Notes under the pieces: generated by a model
What the model was told of the DNA's origin: nothing
Seen by the model: the letters and a program-made list of their open reading frames with translations, nothing else
The model's database searches: none
Translations under genes and position numbers: made by a program
Origin: Ferroacidibacillus organovorans
GTDB lineage: Bacteria > Bacillota > Bacilli > Alicyclobacillales > SLC66
Length of the DNA: 34,104 nt
NCBI RefSeq assembly: GCF_001642725.1
Contig: NZ_LSUQ01000029.1
Location: 1-34,104 of the forward strand
Direction: 5' to 3'
Shown: one piece after another, positions 164 to 22,345 of the stretch
How the letters are laid out: each line of letters opens with the position of its first letter
Numbering within the stretch: the first letter of the stretch is position 1

Positions 164-306
164 CCAACTTGTTGAAAAAGAAAACCCGTTGATCACACTC
201 TTTTTTTCTGTCTGTGGTATGCTCATCCTGTCGCAACGCGCCGCATGAATCCTTGTATCGAATGGCGTTTAAAACTCCCTTGCGACACAGAAGTCGGAGG
301 GATATC

Positions 307-1593
307 ATGTCTGTCAATCAGGCAGTCACTCAAAAAAAGAGCATATCGGCAACTGTGTATTATCTGATCACTTCACTCAGTTGGAGCATTCCAGCACTGC
401 TTCTGGTTAGCATCGCGCTTCCCCAAGCACTTCTTGGGAATCTGGGTGATCCACTTCTCCTGGCCGCCATTCACGCCATCATTCTTGGCACACTGCTAAC
501 CGCAGCCTGTGGTGTATTATGGCAATTCATCCCGATTGCATTTCAAGCGCCCCCGCTCAGTCGCCGCGTTCTCTATTGGCATCTCCCCACACACACAATC
601 TCCGTGCTTCTCATGGTTCTCGGTTTTATTCAGAGTCAGTGGAACATCGTGGCGTGGGGCGGATCCCTTTTACTTCTGATAACCATCGTGTACGGTACAT
701 ATCTTTTCGCACATTTACGCCGAGCGCGCAATCAAACCGCCGTTCACAAACTTATGGCTTTCCCGCTTATTTCGCTCCCCATCGTCATGTTCGTCGGGCT
801 ACTCCTTGCGACTCATCGCGTAGCAGGGTCAAACCCATGGTTGGTCACACACGCAACCCTTGGCTTTTTTGGATTCTGGATCAGCCTCGTGATGGTGATC
901 AGTTACAAATTTATCCCTATGTTTTCCCTTAGTCACGGGTACCGGGTTATACCTCACTTCGTTATGCGTCTGTATTTCATCAGCCTAACCCTTCTCCTCG
1001 TTGCAGGATTGCTTCCACTCCTGCATATCTCCCCGCTTTTTTCACGCGCCTTACAGTGGATCGGCGCTTCCCTAAACGCTGTCTCTCTCACACTCTTTGT
1101 ACGTGACAGTGTGCGAATTTTGCAGGCGAGAAAAAGACGACGAATTGCATTTCCGCTTATCGCCGCGCTGCTCTCATCCAGCTTTCTCATCCTTTCCGCA
1201 CTGCTTGCACTCGCGGTTTTTAGCGGCTGGATTCACATCTCTGTGACCCTTATCGCATATCTCATGATCCTTGGCGGACTGTTTCCTCTGCAACTCGCGT
1301 ATATGCACAAGATCATCCCCTTTTTACGCTATGAGTACCGTTACTCCCACGCGCCAGATCGAAAATCAGCTCCACGTTTAGACGATATGGTGCAAAAAGA
1401 CAATGCAAAACGAGGCTCGATCATGTACGCGGCTGGTTTTCTGATCAGCTTTTCGCTCATCCTGATCCAACCGCGCGCATTATCCGAGCCTGTAAGCATC
1501 ATTTTAGGCTTGTTACAAATAGGTGGAATTCTTTCAGTAATCACCGGGTTCGTCAAGACGCTCCAGAGCGGCGGCGTTCGTCCACCCGCATAA
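307..1593 (+). CDS. Polytopic (~12 TM) membrane protein of unknown function, heme-copper-oxidase subunit I-like / NnrS-like
   Basis: GGAGG at 296-300 before ATG at 307; hydrophobic helices throughout; repeated helices ending in (Q/K)(F/I)IP; KIIPFL..YRYS...P.L.DM C-terminal motif. Confidence 0.7.
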   Translation: MSVNQAVTQKKSISATVYYLITSLSWSIPALLLVSIALPQALLGNLGDPLLLAAIHAIILGTLLTAACGVLWQFIPIAFQAPPLSRRVLYWHLPTHTISVLLMVLGFIQSQWNIVAWGGSLLLLITIVYGTYLFAHLRRARNQTAVHKLMAFPLISLPIVMFVGLLLATHRVAGSNPWLVTHATLGFFGFWISLVMVISYKFIPMFSLSHGYRVIPHFVMRLYFISLTLLLVAGLLPLLHISPLFSRALQWIGASLNAVSLTLFVRDSVRILQARKRRRIAFPLIAALLSSSFLILSALLALAVFSGWIHISVTLIAYLMILGGLFPLQLAYMHKIIPFLRYEYRYSHAPDRKSAPRLDDMVQKDNAKRGSIMYAAGFLISFSLILIQPRALSEPVSIILGLLQIGGILSVITGFVKTLQSGGVRPPA

Positions 1594-3805: not shown

Positions 3806-3994
3806 TCAGGTGTTGTCTGATGCTGAAATTCTCACAACGGTGTCATTCCACGACTGACCGCCGCCAATCGGATCTGCGCCACTCGCAATCAGAGCATTCG
3901 GATTGTATCCGCGAAAAGCAGCAGTTCTACCATACTGCCAATGCCCGAAACTCGCTGATATCGCGACGACCTGTGGGTGAATCGCTTCGCACGT
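3806..3994 (-). pseudogene. 3'-terminal remnant of a molybdopterin oxidoreductase (DMSO-reductase family) catalytic subunit
   Basis: Start-less frame TCEAIHPQVVAISASFGHWQYGRTAAFRGYNPNALIASGADPIGGGQSWNDTVVRISASDNT* resembles the C-terminal molybdopterin-dinucleotide-binding domain; lies directly downstream of the Mo transporter. Confidence 0.75.
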
Positions 3995-5944
3995 TCATCC
4001 GTTTCCTCCCACAGTAGACAGCGGCTGATAACCGAACTGCTGAAAGATGGCCTGCCCCTTTGCTGATACCATCATGCGCAAAAGCGCGTTCGCGAGCGCA
4101 GGGTGTGGCGCGTGTACGGGAACCGCGATATAATTCGTCGCAATCACGTTGAGCGTTGCCGGAATTGGGATCACGGTCACTTTGGAACGAAGCGTAGGCG
4201 TTACGTCCGTCTGGTATACAATCCCCGCTCCTGCGTCGCCGAGCGCCACCTTCTCGAGAATCTGTTTTACGTTTACCTCTTCCGATACGACATGTGCCAG
4301 CGCATCTGTCGAAAATGCAGATCCATACACGGCATTCGCCTTTTGAAAGATCTCTCTTGTGTACTTTCCGATCGGAACACTCGTGACCCCAATGATGAGA
4401 TTGACTGGTTTACGTCCGAGATCTGCGAGAGATGTGATATGCGCCGGGTTAGCTTTAGGGACAACGATCACTTCCTTATCGTGTGAAACCGGATAAAACT
4501 GGGTCACGAGCCCTTCTTTCTTAATCTGCGCAATATGACTCAGATCGGCCGAGAGAAAAAGATCATCCGGCGCGCCTTGCTGTAGCTGTGTTTGCAAGAT
4601 TTGTGTCCCGGTATAACTCGCCTGAATGAAGACACCGGAATGCCTTTGTTCAAACGCCTGGATGATCGCGTTAAAGGGGTCGGTTGCATTCGCCGCGACA
4701 AACGCCGTAAGTGTCGTCGAGTGACCCGCCTGATTTGCGCCTGCGCCCTGCGCGTGAGAGTACGTAGTAACGCTTGCTCCCACACCGACTGCGGCAATCA
4801 GCGCTACTGCCGCTGTGAGTGGCGATCTCAAAAAGCATATGCGCGAGGCTGGACGCCACAGTTCTCCAACTTGCGTCTGCTTTTCCGATGGTTCATCTCG
4901 AACGAAAATAGAAGCATCTCGACGTTCTTCATCAGCACTTTGCGCACGAGTGACATACTGGCGTATGTGCTCGCTCGCCACGCTGATGCAGACATCCTCG
5001 CCCACCTCAAACGAGCTTTCACGAAGTGTGTGCGATGACACATCTGCAATGAGCGGAACATCTCCATCAACCCACAAACGCAGCGCATGCCCATATAGCG
5101 CACGATCGCGAATACGTCCACGCCACTGACGCTCCGCTGAAACGGGCCCCCGCGTGACCACCGCGTGCCACGGATCAAACGAGAGGACGCGCGTCTCCTC
5201 TTCTCCACACGTTTCGCTCACCTGATCATCTGCCACCCAGTTGGTTCCGACAAATTGCGCCACAAAACGATTCGCAGGACGCTCGCGCACCTCTTCTGGC
5301 TCTCCGCGCTGTAAAATGATGCCGCGATCCATGACAGCGATCTCTTGCCCGAGGACGCGCGCGTCTTCATAATCGTGCGTCACCACAATACAGGGAATCC
5401 CGATCTGATCGAGTTGCGTACGCAGTTCTGCCCGCACATGGCCGCGTGTTTCTACATCCAGCGCGGACAAGGGTTCATCAAGCAGCAGCAACTTCGGCCG
5501 TTTGACGAGCGCCCGCGCAAGCGCCACGCGTTGTTGCTGTCCTCCAGACAACGTGTTTGGCTTAGCTTCAGAGAGCGACTCTAACTGAAACATCCGCAAT
5601 ACATCACGCACACGTTCTGCGATTTCGGCACGCGCGACTCCCTGCAATCCGTACGCGATGTTGTCACCGACGGACAGATGTGGAAAAAGCGCATAGTTTT
5701 GAAACACCATGCCGATGTTGCGCCGCTCCGTTGGCAACATCACCGTTTGCTTTGCGTCAAACAGGGTTTTTCCATCCAATTCGATAAAACCGTCATCGGC
5801 ATGAACAAGGCCCGCAAGGAGTTGAAGCAGTGTCGTTTTACCACACCCAGAGTGCCCGATAAGCGCTAACGTGTGCGCTGGCACATTGAGCTTGACATCA
5901 AGTGTAAACTCACGAAGTGATTTGCGAAGTTGAAAGGACAGCAT
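3995..5944 (-). CDS. Molybdate/tungstate ABC transporter: fused ATPase (ModC) - TOBE-like region - TM helix - substrate-binding protein (ModA)
   Basis: N-half has Walker A GHSGCGKT, LSGGQQQR, LLLLDEP, VTHD; hydrophobic LTAAVALIAAVGVGASV; C-half has ModA motifs QGAPDDLFLSAD, VPIGKY, NVKQILEKV, AGIVYQTDV, FQQFGY. Confidence 0.88.
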   Translation of the reverse strand: MLSFQLRKSLREFTLDVKLNVPAHTLALIGHSGCGKTTLLQLLAGLVHADDGFIELDGKTLFDAKQTVMLPTERRNIGMVFQNYALFPHLSVGDNIAYGLQGVARAEIAERVRDVLRMFQLESLSEAKPNTLSGGQQQRVALARALVKRPKLLLLDEPLSALDVETRGHVRAELRTQLDQIGIPCIVVTHDYEDARVLGQEIAVMDRGIILQRGEPEEVRERPANRFVAQFVGTNWVADDQVSETCGEEETRVLSFDPWHAVVTRGPVSAERQWRGRIRDRALYGHALRLWVDGDVPLIADVSSHTLRESSFEVGEDVCISVASEHIRQYVTRAQSADEERRDASIFVRDEPSEKQTQVGELWRPASRICFLRSPLTAAVALIAAVGVGASVTTYSHAQGAGANQAGHSTTLTAFVAANATDPFNAIIQAFEQRHSGVFIQASYTGTQILQTQLQQGAPDDLFLSADLSHIAQIKKEGLVTQFYPVSHDKEVIVVPKANPAHITSLADLGRKPVNLIIGVTSVPIGKYTREIFQKANAVYGSAFSTDALAHVVSEEVNVKQILEKVALGDAGAGIVYQTDVTPTLRSKVTVIPIPATLNVIATNYIAVPVHAPHPALANALLRMMVSAKGQAIFQQFGYQPLSTVGGNG

Positions 5945-6749
5945 GCTTCTTGCGCACCCCCTTTTTGACGGTGCGATTCACATGCGTGGTGCGCCCGAGC
6001 ATATACACCAGGATAAGTAAAATGAAGGAAACGAGCAAAAGGAGTGCGGACATCGCAACCGCCACATTAAAGTTCGACTGCATCGCCGTATAGATCGCGA
6101 GGGGCAGCGTCTGCGTAATGCCAGGCAAATTGCCAGCAAACATCATCGTAGCGCCAAACTCCCCAAGCGCCCGTCCCCAAGCGAGCGCCGCGCCAGAGAG
6201 TAGCCCAGGCGCCGCAAGCGGAATGGTGACGCGCCAGAAAGTCGACCATCTCGATACGCCAAGTGTGCGCGAAACAGTGAGGAGTTGCCCGTCCACCGCC
6301 GCGAACGCTTGCATCGCAGCGTGGATGTAAAACGGCGCACTGATGAACATCTGGGCAATGATCACGGCGGACGTGTCAAAAGAGAGGGAAATCCCGAACA
6401 GGGAAAAAGCGTGCCCGAGGAGTCCTGATTGACCAAAGACTAAAAGCAGGCCGACACCTGCAACAGCTGGTGGACTGACGATTGGCATTTGAACCGCAGC
6501 GCGAACAAGCGACTGTCCGCGAAAGTTGCTTCTTGCGAGCCAGTATGCGATTGGCGTGCCGAGTAAAAGAATGACGATAAGTGCACTGACACTTGTCTTT
6601 ATACTCAGTTGGAGCGCCTGATACGATGCTGCCGTGTTTAATTCGCGAAAAAGTGTGCCAATAGGCATTGAGAAAAAAACGGCGAGTAACGGAAGAAAGA
6701 GAAACGCTAAACCGATTGCGATAACAATGCTCCATAAAATACGAAACAT
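5910..6749 (-). CDS. modB: Molybdate ABC transporter permease
   Basis: PIVSPPAVAGVGLL, RALGEFGATMMFAGNLPGITQTLPLAIY. Confidence 0.92.
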   Translation of the reverse strand: MFRILWSIVIAIGLAFLFLPLLAVFFSMPIGTLFRELNTAASYQALQLSIKTSVSALIVILLLGTPIAYWLARSNFRGQSLVRAAVQMPIVSPPAVAGVGLLLVFGQSGLLGHAFSLFGISLSFDTSAVIIAQMFISAPFYIHAAMQAFAAVDGQLLTVSRTLGVSRWSTFWRVTIPLAAPGLLSGAALAWGRALGEFGATMMFAGNLPGITQTLPLAIYTAMQSNFNVAVAMSALLLLVSFILLILVYMLGRTTHVNRTVKKGVRKKHAVLSTSQITS

Positions 6750-6790
6750 GCGATCCCTTGTGTTGATTGTGAACTCTCCCCTCTTCCACC

Positions 6791-6815
6791 TATATCAGAT
6801 AAGTTATCATATATA
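6791..6815. promoter_or_regulatory. Dyad TATAT-N2-GATAA-G-TTATC-N2-ATATA, putative operator over the modB promoter region
   Basis: 25-bp inverted repeat about 40 nt upstream of modB, overlapping a minus-strand TATGAT. Confidence 0.45.
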
Positions 6816-10858: not shown

Positions 10859-11788
10859 CTAAATCAACCCTTTTTTCACGAGAAACTGATGTGCCACCGT
10901 GCTCGGACTCTCTTTTAAGACGTCGACCTCATAATTCATCTGTGTCTGCGCCGCCGTAGAAATTGTCCCCCACAGAGGCTTGAGCACCTTTGTAAGATGA
11001 TCCGCTTTGCGAACCGAATTTTTAATCAGAACAATCCCGTGATAAGGCGGAAAGAATTTTTTATTGTCTGCGAGCGGAACCTCATGCAACTTCTTGAGGC
11101 GACCGTCCGTCGAGTAGGCCATGATCGCCTGTACATCATGATGCGCCAATGCTTCATAAATCAAATTGTAGCTCATCGGCGTCACTTTCTTGAATGTGGC
11201 CCCGTATGTGCGTTCAAACCCTTTCAAACCTGTGTGATGTAGATAGGGAAACGTCGTGTCCGTCGCCATATTCCATGTCCCAAAATACTTTGCCGCCTGA
11301 GAATCGGTGGTCAGATGGTATTTTTGCGCCGTGGATTGATTGACGGCCAACGCATACGTATCTTGATACCCGAGGGATGGCGATACCCAGACACCAAACT
11401 GCTTCATCTCCTGTGTTTTTACGTATTTTGTCACCGCTTTTGGATGCCCCGCAAATTTCCCACTGTAAGACTGATGCAGCGACTCTTGAAACTCAGTCCC
11501 ATCATACCCGACATACATTTGAATCGCCCCCTGCTGCATCATCGAATGCATGAGTTGCGACGCGCCGGAGGTTTGTTTGATCGTCACATGAATATGCGTC
11601 TTCACTTCAATGAGATCCTTTAAAATGTAGTCATCAATCACAGCCTCAGAAAAATCCTGTGACGCAATGGTGATCTGCTTCGGGGCAGCCCCAAGGCTAC
11701 TTGTCGCAGACTGTACACCGCATCCCGCGAGCGCGACGGCCATGACGCCACTCGCACTTAAAATCAACCCTTTTCGCTTGTTGCTCAT
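10859..11788 (-). CDS. Osmoprotectant (glycine betaine/carnitine/choline) ABC transporter substrate-binding lipoprotein, OpuCC-like
   Basis: Lipobox LAGC; LGYQDTYALAV, AYSTDGRL, DNKKFFPPY, MNYEVD. Confidence 0.9.
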   Translation of the reverse strand: MSNKRKGLILSASGVMAVALAGCGVQSATSSLGAAPKQITIASQDFSEAVIDDYILKDLIEVKTHIHVTIKQTSGASQLMHSMMQQGAIQMYVGYDGTEFQESLHQSYSGKFAGHPKAVTKYVKTQEMKQFGVWVSPSLGYQDTYALAVNQSTAQKYHLTTDSQAAKYFGTWNMATDTTFPYLHHTGLKGFERTYGATFKKVTPMSYNLIYEALAHHDVQAIMAYSTDGRLKKLHEVPLADNKKFFPPYHGIVLIKNSVRKADHLTKVLKPLWGTISTAAQTQMNYEVDVLKESPSTVAHQFLVKKGLI

Positions 11789-12456
11789 CGCTCACCCGCG
11801 CCTCCCACTCGCACGCGCAATCCGCGCGGTGTTACCCATTTTTCCAATTGCGCCATCAGAAATTCAGCTAAAAATGCCATCAAAACGGCCGGGATGGTCC
11901 CCGCCAAGACAATTGAGTTGCTGGCCATGCTAAGCCCTTGCAAAATAAGCGAACCAAGCCCTCCTCCGCCAACCAAAGCGGCCAGTGTGGCAAATCCTAC
12001 GGTAGATACTAATGAAGAACGAATTCCTGTAAGAATGACCCGAAGCGCCAAGGGAAGTTCAACAAACCAGAGTAGTTGCCATTTCGTTGTGCCCATCCCA
12101 ATCGCCGCTTCTTTTAATTCTGAAGCGACACCGTCAATCCCTACGTACGTATTCCGAACAATGGGCATAAGCGCGTAGACGAACAGTGCGACGATCGATG
12201 GAAGAACGCCGATTCCAAGCCCTAATGTAATCATTAAAACGAGCAGCGCGAGACTGGGGATTGTTTGCACCGCGTTGCTAAACCCGATAACCCACGGGTA
12301 TAACTTGCGCACGCGTGTCGCAAGAATGGTCATCGGAACAGCGATCAAGACCGCCAATCCGATTGGAATCAACACCAAGACGATCTGTTGTTCCGTCGCC
12401 CTGAGAATATGGCCTGTGTGTTGCGCAAAATACTGCAGCGTATGTTGAATCAGCAT
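11785..12456 (-). CDS. Osmoprotectant ABC transporter permease, OpuCB/CD-like
   Basis: QTIPSLALL, EAAIGMG (EAA motif), VELPLA, LVGGGGLG. Confidence 0.9.
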   Translation of the reverse strand: MLIQHTLQYFAQHTGHILRATEQQIVLVLIPIGLAVLIAVPMTILATRVRKLYPWVIGFSNAVQTIPSLALLVLMITLGLGIGVLPSIVALFVYALMPIVRNTYVGIDGVASELKEAAIGMGTTKWQLLWFVELPLALRVILTGIRSSLVSTVGFATLAALVGGGGLGSLILQGLSMASNSIVLAGTIPAVLMAFLAEFLMAQLEKWVTPRGLRVRVGGAGER

Positions 12457-13310
12457 GAGGATCGCACCGCCTCCCCCGCTACATTCACTGTTACTTTTTC
12501 TGCAGGAGTAGCTTGTCGCGCCATTTCGCTATCTGCCCCGCAGGCATTCACGCTTCGCAAATCCATTTCTTGAAACCGCCCCAACATCCTTTGACGACCG
12601 ATGAAATTCGCGACAAACTCATCCGCCGGATTGCGTAGGATCTCGTCAGGCGCAGCCACCTGCACGATGTGCCCGCCCTTCATCACAACGATGCGATCGG
12701 CGAGGCGCAATGCTTCGTCCATATCGTGCGTGACAAAGAGAATCGTCTTTTGTACGCTACGCTGCAAACGTTTCAACTCATCTTGAAGTTGTTCGCGCGT
12801 AATCGGATCAAGTGCCCCAAACGGCTCATCCATTAGAATAATCTCTGGATTATGCGCCAACGCGCGAAGAACACCGACGCGCTGTTGCTGCCCCCCACTC
12901 AACTCGACGGGATAGCGGTCAAGATAAGTGTCCGGGTCGAGATCAGCGAGTTTCAGCAATTCTCGCGCCCGCGCGCGCCTTTGCACTTTGCCTATTCTTT
13001 GAAGTTTCAAGACAAACGAAATATTCTCCGCGATCGTCAAATGAGGCATCAATCCAATCTGTTGAATCACATACCCTAACCGCCTGCGAAGTTCAACAGG
13101 GGGATAGGAGCGAGCGTCACGTTGGTCAATCTCGATCGTTCCAGACGTCGGTTCAACCAGACGGTTTACCATGCGCAGCGTGGTCGATTTGCCACACCCC
13201 GAGGGACCTATGAGCACGACAAACTCTCCACGCTCGATCGATAGATTGAGATGATCAACGGCAACCGTCTGATCAGCGTAGGATTTTGTTAAATCGATAA
13301 AACGTAAAAT
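12450..13310 (-). CDS. Osmoprotectant ABC transporter ATP-binding protein, OpuCA-like, without CBS domains (start codon uncertain)
   Basis: GPSGCGKST, GYVIQQIGL, LSGGQQQR, LMDEPFGALDPITR; family-like sequence begins at ILRFIDLTKSY (ATT at 13310, after AAAAGGGG); alternative TTG starts at 13346/13349. Confidence 0.88.
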   Translation of the reverse strand: MLRFIDLTKSYADQTVAVDHLNLSIERGEFVVLIGPSGCGKSTTLRMVNRLVEPTSGTIEIDQRDARSYPPVELRRRLGYVIQQIGLMPHLTIAENISFVLKLQRIGKVQRRARARELLKLADLDPDTYLDRYPVELSGGQQQRVGVLRALAHNPEIILMDEPFGALDPITREQLQDELKRLQRSVQKTILFVTHDMDEALRLADRIVVMKGGHIVQVAAPDEILRNPADEFVANFIGRQRMLGRFQEMDLRSVNACGADSEMARQATPAEKVTVNVAGEAVRSSC

Positions 13311-13481
13311 CGTCCGTTCAACCCCTTTTCCGGCGCTTAGGCGCAACAAATGAATACCCGTGATCGAATCGCGGGCAATGCGTACGCTACCCACCCTTCC
13401 TGGTGGATTTCCTTGGCCAATACGCATCATTTTAGACAGACAAAAAGAAGCGTATTGAATCAATTGATGCATTGGGATTGG

Positions 13482-13513
13482 AAAGTAAAATGAGCGGCAC
13501 ATGGTCGCCACCA
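13482..13513 (-). terminator. Putative riboswitch expression-platform terminator
   Basis: TGGTGGC-GACCATGT-GCCGCTCA followed by TTTTACTTT directly after the aptamer. Confidence 0.5.
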
Positions 13514-13517
13514 GTAT

Positions 13518-13642
13518 TCGCCTACGAGGTTAGCTGACGGATTCGGCGAAATAATACGCGCCTAAGAGCGACTGCGGGCGCAGTCCACTCTATTCACCCC
13601 ACAAATGGTTCCCCCGTTCTCCAAAAAAGGAGATTCGGCCCT
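13518..13642 (-). ncRNA. c-di-AMP riboswitch (ydaO/yuaA class)
   Basis: Conserved blocks GCCGAATC..GAGAACGGGGGAACC..GGGGTGAAT..TAGG..CCGAATCCGTCAGCTAACCTCGTAGGCG upstream of an osmolyte transporter. Confidence 0.93.
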
Positions 13643-13674
13643 TCCCGCGGTACCAAGGATAGTTTACTACAATA

Positions 13675-17997: not shown

Positions 17998-20543
17998 GCG
18001 CTCACCCCTTCACTCCCGTTTTCGCGTGTCGCGCGCAGGCGTTCACGAAGGTCAAAAAGATAGGTCAGCGCATCGCGCGGCGTCCACTCATCGAGAGGAA
18101 GCTCCGCAAGCGTCTCAAGAATCGCCCTGGCCTCTTGGTCCTCTTGTGCAGTCGGCGTATCAAAAAAGGAAACCTGTTCACGATTCATCTGGCGCGCCTG
18201 TGCCTCGCGCTCTTGAAGCAGCATCCGCGCGCGCGCCGTCACCCGTTTCGGGACGCCCGCCAGTTTTGCGACATCAATGCCATAGGAGCGATTCGCCGGT
18301 CCTTCGTTTACGTGGTGGAGAAAAATAAGCGCGTCACGCTCCGTGGACGCGGCAACCGAGAGATTGAACGTGCGCGGCAAACGCTGCGGGAGTTCGGTGA
18401 GCTCGTGATAATGCGTTGCAAAAAGGGTGCGCGCTTTAACCTGATCGTGCAGAAATTCAATCACCGCCTCTGCAATCGAGAGCCCGTCATACGTTGCGGT
18501 TCCGCGCCCGATTTCATCGAGCAAGATCAAACTTTTCTCCGTCGCCATCGTGAGCAATTCTGCGGTTTCAGCCATTTCCACCATAAACGTGCTCTGCCCA
18601 GACGCGACATCATCCGATGCGCCAATGCGCGTAAACAGCTTGTCCACTATGCCGATGCGCGCGTAGTCCGCTGGCACATACGAGCCAATTTGCGCGAGGA
18701 TCACAATCAATGCCACTTGTCTCATATACGTGCTCTTTCCGCCCATGTTCGGCCCCGTGATGATCGCGAGTTGCCGCTCATCAGAGAGAAACGTGTCATT
18801 CGGGACGTAGGCGGCAGAGAGCCACCGCTCCACAACGGGGTGACGCCCCGCCTTGATCTCAAGGTCCGTGCTGTCATCGAGTACAGGACGGGTGAAGCGA
18901 TAGCGCAGCGCAATCTCTGCGAGGTCCGTGAAGGCGTCAAGCATGCCGATGAGTGAGGCCGTTTTCTGAATCTCAGGAACCCGCCTGCGCATTTCCTCGA
19001 TCATCTGGCGCACGCGGCCTTCTTCAAGATTGCGCAGTTGATCTTCCGCTGACAGAATCTCCGTTTCCCGCAGTCGAAGCTCCGGCGTCACATAGCGCTC
19101 AGCGCCTGCCAACGTCTGTTTTCGTTCATAATCATCAGGCACCAGAGCGCGATTGCTCGCCGTCACCTCGATGTAATACCCAAAGACGCGGTTATAGGCG
19201 ATTTTAAGCGAACGTATCCCCGTCCGCTGCCGCTCGCGCGCTTCGAGTTCCGCCATGTACGCGCGACTGTCTTGTGCGATGCGACGCAATCGGTCAATCT
19301 CAGGATCTACGCCCTCCCGAATCACGCCAAGCGCCCGCTCGGCGACGGGCGGATCATCCACCAACATCGCCTCAATCTGCACATCCTGCGCGTCATCGCG
19401 CGGCAGATCCGCGAGCAGCGCGTGGAGGGGGACCGCAGTCGCAACCTGTTCCCATACGTTTCGAATCTGCACCGCGCGGCGCATCGACTGCGCGATAAAA
19501 AGTATATCGCGCGGGCCTGCAGCCCCGCTTGAAAGGCGCGCGCACATCTTCTCAAGATCGCGGAACCCGCGCAACAGCTCTGCCGTCTCTGCGCGGGCAA
19601 CCGCGTTTTCCATCACGTGATCAAGCACGACGAGACGCGCTTCAATCGCCTTGCCATCCGCGAGTGGGTAGAGAATCATTTGGCGCAACGCGCGTTTTCC
19701 CATCGCGGTGTGGGTAGTCTGTAGAAAATCAAAGAGGGACGTCGAGCGCTTGGCAAAGCGGCGCGGCTCAAGCAGTTCCAGGTGGTGCGCCGTGCCTGCA
19801 GATACATACAGATAAGGTGTGTCATTTACAGACGTTGCAGGTTTCATATGGAGCGGCGTTGTGCAAAGCGTATACGATACGTACTCAACGAGACGTGTTG
19901 TGACAACCTGCGCGAGGTCATCCTGTGCGTGCGTCACGCGATCTGCCGGCAAATGGGAAACGAGTGCATTGAGCGCCGTCGCCATCTCCCCAATTGCCCG
20001 CCTCGCCTGTTCAGATGTTTGGCTGTCAACAATCAATTCGCGCACGCCCGATGTTTTAAACCAGCCGAGGAGTTCCTGCGTCGTCGCCTCCATGCGCAGA
20101 CAATCCCCCGTAAGTGGATCAAGCATCGCTGCAACCGCCCCCAAAGTGCGCGAGGAGCGCAGCTCAAGCGTCCCGATGCGCAGCGGTCCGTCTTCCTCCC
20201 GCAAATACTCGTGCGCAGTTCCTGGCGTAACGATGCGCACAATTTCGCGGCGAACGATGCCCTTGACGCTGCGCGGATCTTCCACCTGCTCACAGATCGC
20301 CACGCGCAGCCCCGCATCCACCAGTTTCCCGATGTATCCTTCTGCCGCGTGAAACGGAACCCCGCACATCGGAATGCGCGAATCCCCTTTGCCCCGACCC
20401 GTGAGAGTCAGTCCGAGTAGCTCGCTCGCAAGCGTTGCATCGTCATAAAACAGCTCATAAAAGTCACCCAGGCGGTACATCAAAAGGGCGTCCGGACAGG
20501 ACGCCTTGATACGCTCGTACTGGTCAAGCATCGGGGTCTTCAT
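17976..20543 (-). CDS. mutS: DNA mismatch repair protein MutS
   Basis: TPMLDQY, GDFYELF, TGPNMGGKSTYMRQ, STFMVEM, DEIGRGT, FATHYHEL. Confidence 0.97.
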   Translation of the reverse strand: MKTPMLDQYERIKASCPDALLMYRLGDFYELFYDDATLASELLGLTLTGRGKGDSRIPMCGVPFHAAEGYIGKLVDAGLRVAICEQVEDPRSVKGIVRREIVRIVTPGTAHEYLREEDGPLRIGTLELRSSRTLGAVAAMLDPLTGDCLRMEATTQELLGWFKTSGVRELIVDSQTSEQARRAIGEMATALNALVSHLPADRVTHAQDDLAQVVTTRLVEYVSYTLCTTPLHMKPATSVNDTPYLYVSAGTAHHLELLEPRRFAKRSTSLFDFLQTTHTAMGKRALRQMILYPLADGKAIEARLVVLDHVMENAVARAETAELLRGFRDLEKMCARLSSGAAGPRDILFIAQSMRRAVQIRNVWEQVATAVPLHALLADLPRDDAQDVQIEAMLVDDPPVAERALGVIREGVDPEIDRLRRIAQDSRAYMAELEARERQRTGIRSLKIAYNRVFGYYIEVTASNRALVPDDYERKQTLAGAERYVTPELRLRETEILSAEDQLRNLEEGRVRQMIEEMRRRVPEIQKTASLIGMLDAFTDLAEIALRYRFTRPVLDDSTDLEIKAGRHPVVERWLSAAYVPNDTFLSDERQLAIITGPNMGGKSTYMRQVALIVILAQIGSYVPADYARIGIVDKLFTRIGASDDVASGQSTFMVEMAETAELLTMATEKSLILLDEIGRGTATYDGLSIAEAVIEFLHDQVKARTLFATHYHELTELPQRLPRTFNLSVAASTERDALIFLHHVNEGPANRSYGIDVAKLAGVPKRVTARARMLLQEREAQARQMNREQVSFFDTPTAQEDQEARAILETLAELPLDEWTPRDALTYLFDLRERLRATRENGSEGVSAWGASRN

Positions 20544-21994
20544 GATCCTGTCATCGCCACACTTTCACGATCCACGCGCTCCCCGCGCAGCGTCCACGTG
20601 TTGGCCGATAGGATGCGAACGTAAATCGACTGCCCAATCCACTGCGGCGGTCCTTCCACCAGCACCAGCTTATTCGTGTCCGTCCGAGTAGCGAGGACGT
20701 GCCCGTTCGTTCGCGAGACGCCTTCTACCAAAACGCGCGCCGTCGCGCCTACCGCTCGCTGACTCGCCGCAAGCGTATAGCCATCCTGAACGCTCATCAA
20801 ACGAGCCAAGCGCTGCTTTTTTTCATCTTCTGAAACGGCATCCTTAAATCCAGCCGCCGGCGTACCTGTTCGCGCCGAATACGAAAACGTATATGCATTG
20901 TCAAACTGAACGTCAGAAACGAGGGTGAGCGTCTCTTGAAAATCTTGCTCCGTCTCCCCCGGAAACCCTACAATCAAATCGGTCGTCAGCGCGACGCCCG
21001 GGATGCGTTCGCGGATCTTTCTCACCAGTTCGAGATAGTACTCGCGCGTGTATCCCCGGTTCATCCGCTTTAAGATTGCATTGCTACCCGACTGCACCGG
21101 GAGGTGAATGTGATGGCATACGGTCTTCGTCTCGGCAATCGCTTCGATCAAATCATCTGTAAAATTCCACGGATTAGACGTGGTAAAACGTACCCGTTCA
21201 ATCCCCGCGACACCCCCCACAGCCCGCAACAGTGTCGAAAAATGCGTTCCAAGATCCAATCCATAGTCATTCACATTCTGGCCGAGCAGCGTCACCTCTT
21301 TAAAACCGCGCGCGGCAAGGTCTACGACTTCCGAAACGATGCTCTCCATCGTGCGGCTACGCTCTTTTCCGCGCGTGTACGGCACAATGCAGTACGTGCA
21401 ATACTTGTTGCAACCGTACTGAATATTGACCCAAGCGCGCGTCTGATCGGTGCGCGCCTTTGGGAGTTCATCAAGCGTCTCCACCGACTGTTCCCAAACC
21501 TCCATGACCGTTTCAAACGAGTGACTCGCCTGCTCAATCAGTTCAGGCATGCGATGGATATTGTGCGTGCCAAAGACGACATCCACCCACGGATATGTGC
21601 TGCGCACACGCTCTTGCACCGCAGTTTCTTGCGGCATGCACCCGCAAACGCCAAGCAAGAGTTGCGGATTAAGCTGTTTCAGCGGTTTGACGCGTCCAAT
21701 CTCGCCAAACACTTTGTTTTCCGCATTCTCGCGCACCGCACACGTATTAAAAAGAATCAAATCCGCAGCCGTTTCATCGGTTGTCGCGGCATATCCCATT
21801 TCTTCGAGCAACCCGGCAATCATTTCCGAGTCGTGTTCATTCATTTGACATCCATACGTTTTTAGGAGATAGCGTTTCCCGCGGTACGCACCCTTTAGTT
21901 CTTCGCGCAATCCCGCCGCATGTTTCAGCGCTTCCTGCACGGGGATCGAGGGGCGATGCACGGTCAATGCGGGATCAAGTTCACTTCGCAGCAC
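20540..21994 (-). CDS. miaB: tRNA-2-methylthio-N6-dimethylallyladenosine synthase MiaB
   Basis: TYGCQMNEHDSE, NTCAVRENAE, radical-SAM CNKYCTYC, IVGFPGET, TRAM domain; GTG at 21994 with GGGAGG SD. Confidence 0.96.
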   Translation of the reverse strand: MLRSELDPALTVHRPSIPVQEALKHAAGLREELKGAYRGKRYLLKTYGCQMNEHDSEMIAGLLEEMGYAATTDETAADLILFNTCAVRENAENKVFGEIGRVKPLKQLNPQLLLGVCGCMPQETAVQERVRSTYPWVDVVFGTHNIHRMPELIEQASHSFETVMEVWEQSVETLDELPKARTDQTRAWVNIQYGCNKYCTYCIVPYTRGKERSRTMESIVSEVVDLAARGFKEVTLLGQNVNDYGLDLGTHFSTLLRAVGGVAGIERVRFTTSNPWNFTDDLIEAIAETKTVCHHIHLPVQSGSNAILKRMNRGYTREYYLELVRKIRERIPGVALTTDLIVGFPGETEQDFQETLTLVSDVQFDNAYTFSYSARTGTPAAGFKDAVSEDEKKQRLARLMSVQDGYTLAASQRAVGATARVLVEGVSRTNGHVLATRTDTNKLVLVEGPPQWIGQSIYVRILSANTWTLRGERVDRESVAMTGS

Positions 21995-22025
21995 CAGGTC
22001 GTTCCTCCCTGTTCTCGTTGACTCT

Positions 22026-22054
22026 AGTTTATCGAAAGATCGGTTAGGTGACAA
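22026..22054 (-). promoter_or_regulatory. Sigma-A promoter of the miaB-mutSL-miaA-hfq operon
   Basis: TTGTCA-N17-TAAACT. Confidence 0.65.
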
Positions 22055-22065
22055 ATTTTCCATGC

Positions 22066-22093
22066 AAAAGCCGCAGGAGGACATTCCTGCGGC
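22066..22093 (-). terminator. Intrinsic terminator downstream of 6S RNA
   Basis: GCCGCAGGA-N6-TCCTGCGGC followed by TTTT. Confidence 0.8.
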
Positions 22094-22114
22094 GGTTCAC
22101 TTGTCTTTTCATTT

Positions 22115-22292
22115 AAAACCCGCGCATGCCGTAAAGGACGCGTGTTTTCGAACCTGCTCTCGCAGGTGGGCAACTGTGGTTTCGAGTGTTTGACGTCCCT
22201 TCAAAGAGGGCATGCCAGCACGAAACTCCGATCTGTTTCCCTTATAACACGTAAGGTTCAAAACATAAGCCCTCATACGCACACGGCAGGTG
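22115..22292 (-). ncRNA. ssrS: 6S RNA
   Basis: ~180-nt rod: 5' TGCCGT pairs with 3' ACGGCA; GTTTTGAACCT pairs with AGGTTCGAAAAC; central bubble flanked by AAGGGA and CCCACCTG; own TGnTATGAT promoter at 22298-22306 and own terminator. Confidence 0.85.
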
Positions 22293-22345
22293 TGAACATC
22301 ATAGCAAGCGTGCGCGCTTCGCGCAACCATCAGTTTTCTCCAGAC

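Follow-up and report, generated by a model that had tools for sequence, protein, structure and literature searches.

The window analyzed here, a 34,104-nt stretch of Ferroacidibacillus organovorans (contig NZ_LSUQ01000029.1), carries on its minus strand a unit with two transporter genes: a modB permease gene (5910–6749) encoding 279 aa and a gene (3995–5944) in which an ATP-binding cassette (ABC) ATPase and a ModA molybdate-binding domain are encoded as a single open reading frame (ORF) of 649 codons plus stop, with zero internal stops. The 3′ end of modB shares 35 nt with the start of the fused gene, and the unit contains no transporter genes besides these two; a gene for a thiamine pyrophosphate enzyme lies 183 nt upstream of it and one for an aldehyde dehydrogenase lies 325 nt downstream. 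The locus therefore departs from an importer with three separate subunits A, B, and C, as C and A are one ORF. ModB exceeds the cut-offs of both TIGR02141 modB_ABC (223 bits; cut-off 182.6) and TIGR01581 (232.7 bits; cut-off 210.3), and Pfam finds BPD_transp_1 as its only domain, with no binding domain. The window also carries cotE, RNase Y, ymdB, mutSL, a 6S RNA, and a cyclic di-AMP (c-di-AMP) riboswitch, and the presence of cotE places the host among the spore-forming Bacillota.

From its N terminus, the fused protein comprises an ABC nucleotide-binding domain (residues 1–240; 5225–5944), delimited by Pfam ABC_tran, its motifs, AlphaFold2 (AF2), and Foldseek, followed by a beta-rich C-terminal regulatory domain of the ATPase, of the TOBE_2 type (residues 250–333; 4946–5197), delimited by AF2 and Foldseek. 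A variable, charged, 42-residue linker predicted to be cytoplasmic (residues 334–375; 4820–4945), drawn from AF2 confidence and the alignment, leads to a hydrophobic segment predicted to cross the membrane (residues 376–395, L376–Y395; 4760–4819). Beyond it lie a 14-residue, Ser/Gly/Ala/Gln-rich tether, predicted to be extracellular, that was placed by alignment and holds the sequence SHA-QG (residues 396–409; 4718–4759), and the ModA domain (residues 410–645; 4010–4717), supported by TIGR01256, solved structures, and AF2. Pfam assigned ABC_tran to residues 23–159 (E 1.1e-34) and SBP_bac_11 to residues 412–640 (E 2e-44). These results agree with an earlier note on this DNA, which had described an uninterrupted 649-codon frame in a two-gene operon with modB, containing an ATPase, a TOBE-like region, a charged linker, and a ModA domain, as well as a hydrophobic segment at 4760–4819 preceded by Arg residues, no lipobox, and no obvious internal Shine-Dalgarno (SD)/start pair in front of the ModA half. 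The Arg residues are R366, R369, and R373; the nearest Cys, C370, also precedes the segment, and an Arg replaces it in other strains and in P0002, which is 99% identical. Five in-frame ATG/GTG/TTG codons lie between residues 300 and 412 of the fused ORF, and none just ahead of the hydrophobic segment is preceded by an SD. The only start placed to yield ModA together with its signal-like segment, the TTG at L372, has no SD, and with no usable internal start, a separate ModA carrying this segment would not be producible from the fused ORF. An Rfam scan at gathering thresholds found no molybdenum cofactor riboswitch or other element ahead of modB, and a scan for promoters and terminators did no better than chance (2 promoter-like sites, 2.3 expected; 5 terminator-like sites, 4.7 expected).

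The fused frame is not an assembly artifact. Contigs from three other studies (X5, X6, and X7) list no insertions or deletions across the fused region; X1 was left out of this independent set, as it is possibly the source of the window itself. X5 and X6 each span 3978–6797 in one contig with 20 substitutions and no gaps, and X7 covers the fused region in three pieces, again with no gaps. When all 14 ORF-internal substitutions were applied, the frame stayed open and seven residues changed. The stop or frameshift that the earlier note had imagined in the linker is thus found neither there nor elsewhere in the contigs of the other runs.

The ATPase half contains a Walker A motif (GHSGCGKT), a signature motif (LSGGQQQR), a Walker B motif (LLLLDEP), and H190, and these motifs are invariant or nearly so across 115 aligned homologs. 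This alignment, which also served for the topology analysis below, was reduced from 121 proteins by dropping six that were partial or half-covered (P0072, P0076, P0089, P0100, P0117, and P0118). Using Foldseek, we found that the fused nucleotide-binding domain matches ModC (2onk_A) at 44% identity and that the N-terminal half aligns over 355–370 columns with CysA (1z47), MalK, and PotA, chains that carry C-terminal regulatory domains. Pfam detects TOBE_2 weakly at residues 270–328 (18.3 bits, under the cut-off of 21), and in the relative P0245 the same domain scores 26.1 bits. An AF2 model of the fused protein based on 115 homologs reached a mean predicted local distance difference test (pLDDT) score of 86.8, with values near or above 90 for the ATPase domain (1–240), the beta domain (250–333), and the ModA fold (410–645).

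The C-terminal 245 residues (405–649) match TIGR01256 modA at 109.3 bits (cut-off 62.5), and the solved ModA structures 2h5y, 4kd5, and 3gzg match the ModA part at E values of 6.5e-15 to 4.2e-14. We predicted a complex of two ModB copies with residues 350–649 of the fused protein, using our own alignments in a job unlike those on which the tool was calibrated. The model scored 0.69, compared with 0.00 for the best of three controls, a level reached by 116 of 157 solved complexes and by 2 of 215 mismatched pairs; the runs agreed in at least 47% of contacts, with a partner pLDDT of at least 75. Both lobes of ModA touch residues 95–108, 123–124, and 202–228 of both ModB copies. Because similar complexes have been solved (2onk and 3d31), the pass of this textbook-like pair may be the predictor's memory of such a complex, and the docking model shows likeness to solved ModB2C2A complexes, not binding. 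The hydrophobic segment is absent from the confident ModB contacts, and the model is uninformative on how it packs.

To read the topology of the chain, we examined hydropathy and charge around the segment, which has a 19-residue Kyte-Doolittle mean of 1.89. A 19-residue window with a Kyte-Doolittle value of at least 1.6 lies between the two domains in 111 of the 115 homologs. The 15 residues before this hydrophobic window contain on average 4.4 Lys plus Arg residues, compared with 0.98 in the 15 residues after it, and the upstream count is higher in 111 homologs, equal in 4, and lower in 0. The positive-inside rule allows topology to be read from such an asymmetry, and the higher count before the segment predicts that the ATPase lies inside and ModA outside. 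On this basis, we infer both the insertion of the segment into the membrane and its orientation. Hydropathy and charge thus indicate a membrane segment in 111 of 115 homologs, which speaks against the concern of the earlier note that none might be predicted. Across the 115 homologs, the cytoplasmic linker ranges from 21 to 63 residues (median 30) and the external tether from 7 to 27 residues (median 13).

The fused arrangement is shared by many other proteins. Taking the best 120 matches from a word-indexed search of 5.8 billion proteins, we found that all 120 contain both PF00005 and PF13531, at 44 to 99% identity, and that 118 of 121 proteins (query included) are 590 aa or longer, giving at least 118 full-length homologs; with the indel-free contigs of three studies, this puts the feature far beyond chance. 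Named Bacillales sources among these best 120 are Effusibacillus, Fodinisporobacter, Pullulanibacillus, Ammoniphilus, Aneurinibacillus, Cytobacillus, Mesobacillus, Neobacillus, Halobacillus, and Sediminibacillus, and actinobacterial sources are Actinophytocola and a metagenome-assembled genome labeled "Actinobacteria bacterium." One 93-member cluster in the ESM Atlas has both families in 100% of its members, and in a library clustered at 50% identity, the best 150 matches for the ModA part include 5 proteins of 631–657 aa in which the match is C-terminal. Within the genus, family, and order of the host, the fused form occurs in 3 of 41 genomes, namely, that of the window, G013, and G001, a member of the same genus with a full-length fused copy at 79% identity; in a sample of the class, 9 of 401 genomes match at E <= 1e-80, in 7 of 145 genera. 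These counts indicate a patchy distribution, and full-length fused relatives in independent genomes dispose of the supposition that relatives always carry separate modC and modA genes.

The gene context is constant: modB immediately precedes the fused gene at each of 12 fused loci, giving the order modB-modC::modA (the set includes the window's own locus and an interrupted one, and one modB is cut by a contig end). Two genomes (G036 and G039) have separate ModA-like and ModC-like matches 1–2 kb apart on one contig. A locus scan built on ATPase-motif patterns, which is no census of fusions, returned 80 generic ABC ATPase loci, of which only L039, a canonical modA-modB-modC locus, was relevant. 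The interrupted relative (L104, G258:C4, 1100–2964), from one of the 9 matching genomes of the class, is broken into ORFs of 146 and 475 aa inside the ATPase, after the signature motif, and represents either a pseudogene or a sequencing error. Other types of ModA fusion also appeared in the searches: ModA with Oxidored_molyb (three proteins), ModA with Peripla_BP_2, and FUR with ModA (P0362, P0275, P0303, P0324, and P0271). Databases name the fused proteins "molybdate ABC transporter substrate-binding protein" or "carnitine transport ATP-binding protein OpuCA," and such partial or wrong names can make carrier genomes seem to lack modC. IMG names both halves once (P0028), indicating that annotators have met the architecture.

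To explore where the fusion came from, we compared its ModA part with standalone proteins. Its closest standalone relatives are 46–67% identical, while ordinary ModA proteins are 42% identical or less. These relatives carry a signal peptide at the exact place of the hydrophobic segment in the fusion, of the lipobox type in P0122, P0123, P0129, and P0131 and of the AXA type in P0125, P0127, P0137, and P0139. One genome (G268) has a fused copy (L102) beside an orphan lipoprotein ModA (L106; G268:C1, 1390–2235, plus strand) with an ITGC lipobox and 56% identity to the ModA domain of the window; L106 adjoins neither modB nor modC and may be an extra receptor for the same transporter. From its Cys to the first ModA strand, L106 has 12 residues, compared with the median tether of 13 in the fusions. 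A quick, midpoint-rooted maximum-likelihood tree was computed from ModA domains of three kinds: 63 fused (beyond P0010 only every second protein, with five fragments omitted), 16 close standalone, and 16 ordinary (every second of P0143–P0173). It placed fused and close standalone ModA in one clade (Shimodaira-Hasegawa-like approximate likelihood ratio test [SH-aLRT] support 100), and well-supported branches force at least two changes between the fused and standalone states. Because the segment stands where standalone relatives have their signal peptide, the fusion looks like the loss of a modC stop codon. In the simplest reading, this stop codon would have been lost in a modB-modC-modA operon, and the ModA signal peptide would have become an internal signal anchor.

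The host genome, which is 96.8% complete, contains no other modA-class domain above the modA cut-off. It encodes five PF00384 molybdopterin oxidoreductases, indicating a need for molybdate or tungstate. A separate locus of the same genome (L002, on contig C26) encodes a WtpA-like binding protein, under the WtpA cut-offs, with a permease and a helix-turn-helix regulator whose C terminus matches the C-terminal end of the molybdopterin biosynthesis model NF011068 (E 1.2e-16, far under the cut-off); this may be a second system for oxyanions (tungstate/molybdate), equipped with a sensor of its own. The host otherwise uses lipoboxes, and the signal peptides of the substrate-binding proteins (SBPs) at L002, L003, and L004 have no lipobox Cys.

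Taken together, we propose that the products of modB and the fused gene suffice for a type I ABC importer of molybdate, ModB2(ModC-TM-ModA)2 (TM, transmembrane segment), in which the chain stays uncleaved, and we assign this reading a probability of about 0.6. The N-terminal 333 residues, comprising the ATPase and its beta regulatory domain, would fold in the cytoplasm, the hydrophobic segment would insert N-in/C-out as a signal anchor, and the Sec system would export the C-terminal ModA domain. Much like a lipoprotein ModA, the domain would remain on the outer face of the membrane, here on a tether of about 14 residues, where it would take up molybdate and dock on the outer loops of the ModB dimer. 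The uncleaved segment would serve both as the anchor of ModA and as its covalent link to its own ATPase, so that one binding domain is fixed per ATPase and kept at the transporter. A two-gene importer of this kind had been suggested in the earlier note, and the suggestion is supported by the position of modB upstream in all 12 loci, the charge asymmetry in 111 of 115 homologs, the lack of a second modA-class domain in the host, and the docking model. Because the linkers are disordered and variable, we take the link to be a tether rather than an allosteric wire.

Several observations weigh against this reading. AF2 gives residues 343–406 a pLDDT below 50 and does not build the segment as a helix, which is also often the look of cleaved signal peptides; the sequence of the segment is unconserved among homologs, and nothing shows the segment to be a fixed part of the complex. 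The ATPase half, which the earlier note labeled ModC, is a complete ABC ATPase but falls short of the modC equivalog model, scoring 226.4 bits against a TIGR02142 cut-off of 285.05. This match spans profile positions 2–264 of 353, leaving the canonical ModC C-terminal domain unmatched, and the potA and PhnT2 models score higher than the modC model, yet also under their own cut-offs; naming this half ModC rests on context. Molybdate as the substrate is likewise inferred from family membership and the five molybdopterin oxidoreductase genes. The remaining points favor processing of the chain, an outcome that we consider possible but unlikely, in which the segment would be an internal Sec signal peptide, cut by signal peptidase I near SHA|QG, with Lgt and Lsp acting in members that bear a lipobox. 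Cleavage would part ModA, either unattached in the wall zone or lipid-anchored, from a ModC that keeps a membrane tail at its C terminus, and the fusion would bring nothing beyond co-translation and synthesis at 1:1. In Bradyrhizobium, the cytochrome b/c1 precursor FbcH is reported to undergo cleavage at such an internal signal peptide, so that bacteria would be capable of it; a literature search on bacterial internal signal peptides gave no useful result. The fused protein has a positive n-region (RxxRxxxR), an h-region (L376–Y395) that is Ala/Gly-rich and signal-peptide-like at its hydropathy of 1.89, and S-H-A|Q; the segment occupies the place of the cleavable signal peptides of standalone relatives, and AF2 builds no confident helix there. 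SBPs of the PF13531 type elsewhere in the host (L002, L003, and L004, on its contigs C26, C2, and C32) have similar non-lipobox signal peptides ending in THA-FG, LHA-ST, and AFA-SS. In addition, in 4 of the 115 fused homologs (P0039, P0066, P0079, and P0093, the last named "Actinobacteria bacterium") the segment ends in a canonical lipobox, LGAC-G or VGGC-G; these proteins are candidates for internal Lgt/Lsp processing, or their lipoboxes may be relics of a lipoprotein ancestor. The two or more state changes in the quick tree also point this way, as they suggest that fused and standalone forms interconvert readily. The length of the h-region, assessed by a Kadane-type measure, did not separate fused segments from standalone signal peptides and was set aside as a test of cleavage.

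Cleavage near SHA-QG, which the earlier note had offered as its own alternative, fits the -3/-1 rule, four residues past the hydrophobic core, but the motif occurs at chance level and so argues neither way: small-x-small motifs follow the segment in 102 of 115 homologs, compared with 103.5 expected in shuffles, and strict AxA motifs in 14, compared with 19.8 expected. With cleavage motifs not enriched over shuffles, selection for a cleavage site is not visible, and most Bacillaceae members have no obvious AXA motif. Other features also speak for retention of the segment. Its core of 19–20 residues is long enough to span the membrane, the tether of the fusion equals that of the lipoprotein relative in length, and a cleaved, unlipidated ModA could be lost from a monoderm cell, which has no outer membrane to hold it; the host has 32 lipobox-like N termini, including that of OpuAC in the window, yet the fusion has no lipobox. 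On balance, we consider an uncleaved chain the most likely. That the SBP-like domain instead stays inside, binding intracellular molybdate and regulating the ATPase as in NrtC/CmpC while the receptor is encoded elsewhere, is very improbable in our view. CmpC is the one solved chain that combines an ATPase and an SBP-like domain (described in the available part of PMC13287603), and Foldseek lists its chain 9u9z_C at rank 46 for the fused protein. However, a hydrophobic segment with positive-inside asymmetry parts the two domains in 111 of 115 homologs, the host has no other modA-class gene to act as the receptor, and the standalone proteins nearest to the ModA part are secreted or are exported as lipoproteins; moreover, the ATPase already has its own beta regulatory domain, and ModA retains a ModB-docking surface in the complex model, subject to the caveats given above for that model. 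We give practically no weight to the idea that a sequencing or assembly error erased a stop or frameshift that keeps modC and modA apart. Split modA-modB-modC loci in canonical order do exist in G036 and G039, and the fused relative in G258 is interrupted, though inside the ATPase and not in the linker. Against such an error stand the contigs of three other studies, with no indels and a frame that stays open under their substitutions, at least 118 full-length homologs, and the gene order of the fused form, which is modB-modC::modA and not modA-modB-modC. Finally, a bolder version of the tethered importer, which we regard as improbable, would have the whole chain couple ModA docking or ligand state to ATPase gating or trans-inhibition in cis, with stop-codon loss ahead of any exported binding protein as a route that turns signal peptides into membrane-spanning linkers and yields "through-membrane" ABC subunits, of which this family would be the first recognized. 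Such coupling is conceivable because the same polypeptide joins the outside binding domain to the inside regulatory domain of its own ATPase.

Several other features of the window lie outside the transporter unit. Just past the stop codon of the fused gene, the X5 and X6 contigs diverge at 3978–3988, one covering 3900–3988 before it departs and another starting to match at 3978, preceded by dissimilar sequence, and pieces of X7 end at 3978 and 4007 with no loose end listed; the divergence at 3978–3988 indicates a strain-level rearrangement or insertion boundary directly after the fused gene. A c-di-AMP riboswitch (82.4 bits; 13504–13650, minus strand) lies directly upstream of an OpuA-type glycine-betaine ABC operon (10859–13511, minus strand) encoding an ATPase, a permease, and the lipoprotein OpuAC with an LAGC lipobox. 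Between 22346 and 29139 (minus strand), beside cotE, a run of consecutive genes encodes four ATP-grasp proteins of the YheC/D type and a phiEco32-like COOH-NH2 ligase, forming a possible spore-coat-associated peptide-ligase cluster. The 6S RNA (71.5 bits; 22113–22295, minus strand) adjoins this cluster and lies directly downstream of a radical S-adenosylmethionine (SAM)/TRAM (MiaB-like) gene (20540–22084). An ORF of 459 aa at 214–1593 (plus strand) has no Pfam match at E <= 1e-5.

The fusion is real and widespread, as well as unstudied, and it is mechanistically plausible, although it probably amounts to a tether rather than a new transport principle. The arrangement is natural and stable enough to have diversified to 44% identity, and it would build a 1:1:1 stoichiometry into two genes. 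It could serve as a clean natural setting in which to test the number of tethered binding domains that a type I importer requires, and it illustrates how a signal peptide was apparently turned into a transmembrane linker. In the full-text library searched, which did not extend to subscription journals or to TCDB and InterPro pages, no chain of the ATPase-TM-binding-protein type was found described. The available part of a review of ways in which SBPs are held at importers (PMC3971661) names permease fusion, a lipid anchor, a separate transmembrane helix, and free diffusion, and ATPase fusion is absent there; the available part of a survey of C. difficile ABC systems (PMC8144104) describes separate and permease-fused binding domains only. 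Fusion to the ATPase across the membrane would thus add a fourth way of keeping an SBP at its importer beside the lipid anchor, the transmembrane helix, and the permease fusion.

Compared with known systems, the fused locus has the same three functions and families as canonical ModABC of E. coli, the Archaeoglobus ModB2C2A complex (2onk), and Methanosarcina ModBC (3d31). Unlike these, it would place ModC and ModA on one polypeptide through the membrane, in the order modB-modC::modA, with a C-terminal ATPase domain of the TOBE_2 type and a ratio of binding domain to ATPase fixed at 1:1. The only described class with an ABC ATPase and an SBP-homologous domain on one chain, to judge from the available part of PMC13287603, is that of NrtC/CmpC from cyanobacterial nitrate and bicarbonate importers. 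According to that part, CmpC ends in a domain that shares about 30% identity with CmpA and follows the ATPase domain directly; this domain is cytoplasmic and regulatory and keeps both ATPase domains locked as long as nitrate is not bound. It is found on just one of the importer's two different ATPases, and a separate CmpA works outside the cell. The fused ModC-ModA differs in having a membrane segment between its domains, an ATPase predicted to pair as a homodimer, and no separate ModA. Like binding proteins anchored by a lipid or their own transmembrane helix, it would hold ModA at the outer face on a similar tether (12 residues in the lipoprotein relative and a median of 13 in the fusions), although the cytoplasmic end of its anchor runs into an ATPase and not a short N terminus. 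Covalent tethering of two or more binding domains per complex by short flexible linkers is a solution used by Gram-positive bacteria in OpuA and GlnPQ, as described in the available parts of PMC11065425, PMC8025302, and PMC3971661. The fusion resembles these importers in its tethered binding domain and differs in carrying it on the ATPase chain instead of the permease, an arrangement in which the chain must cross the membrane once on its own helix.

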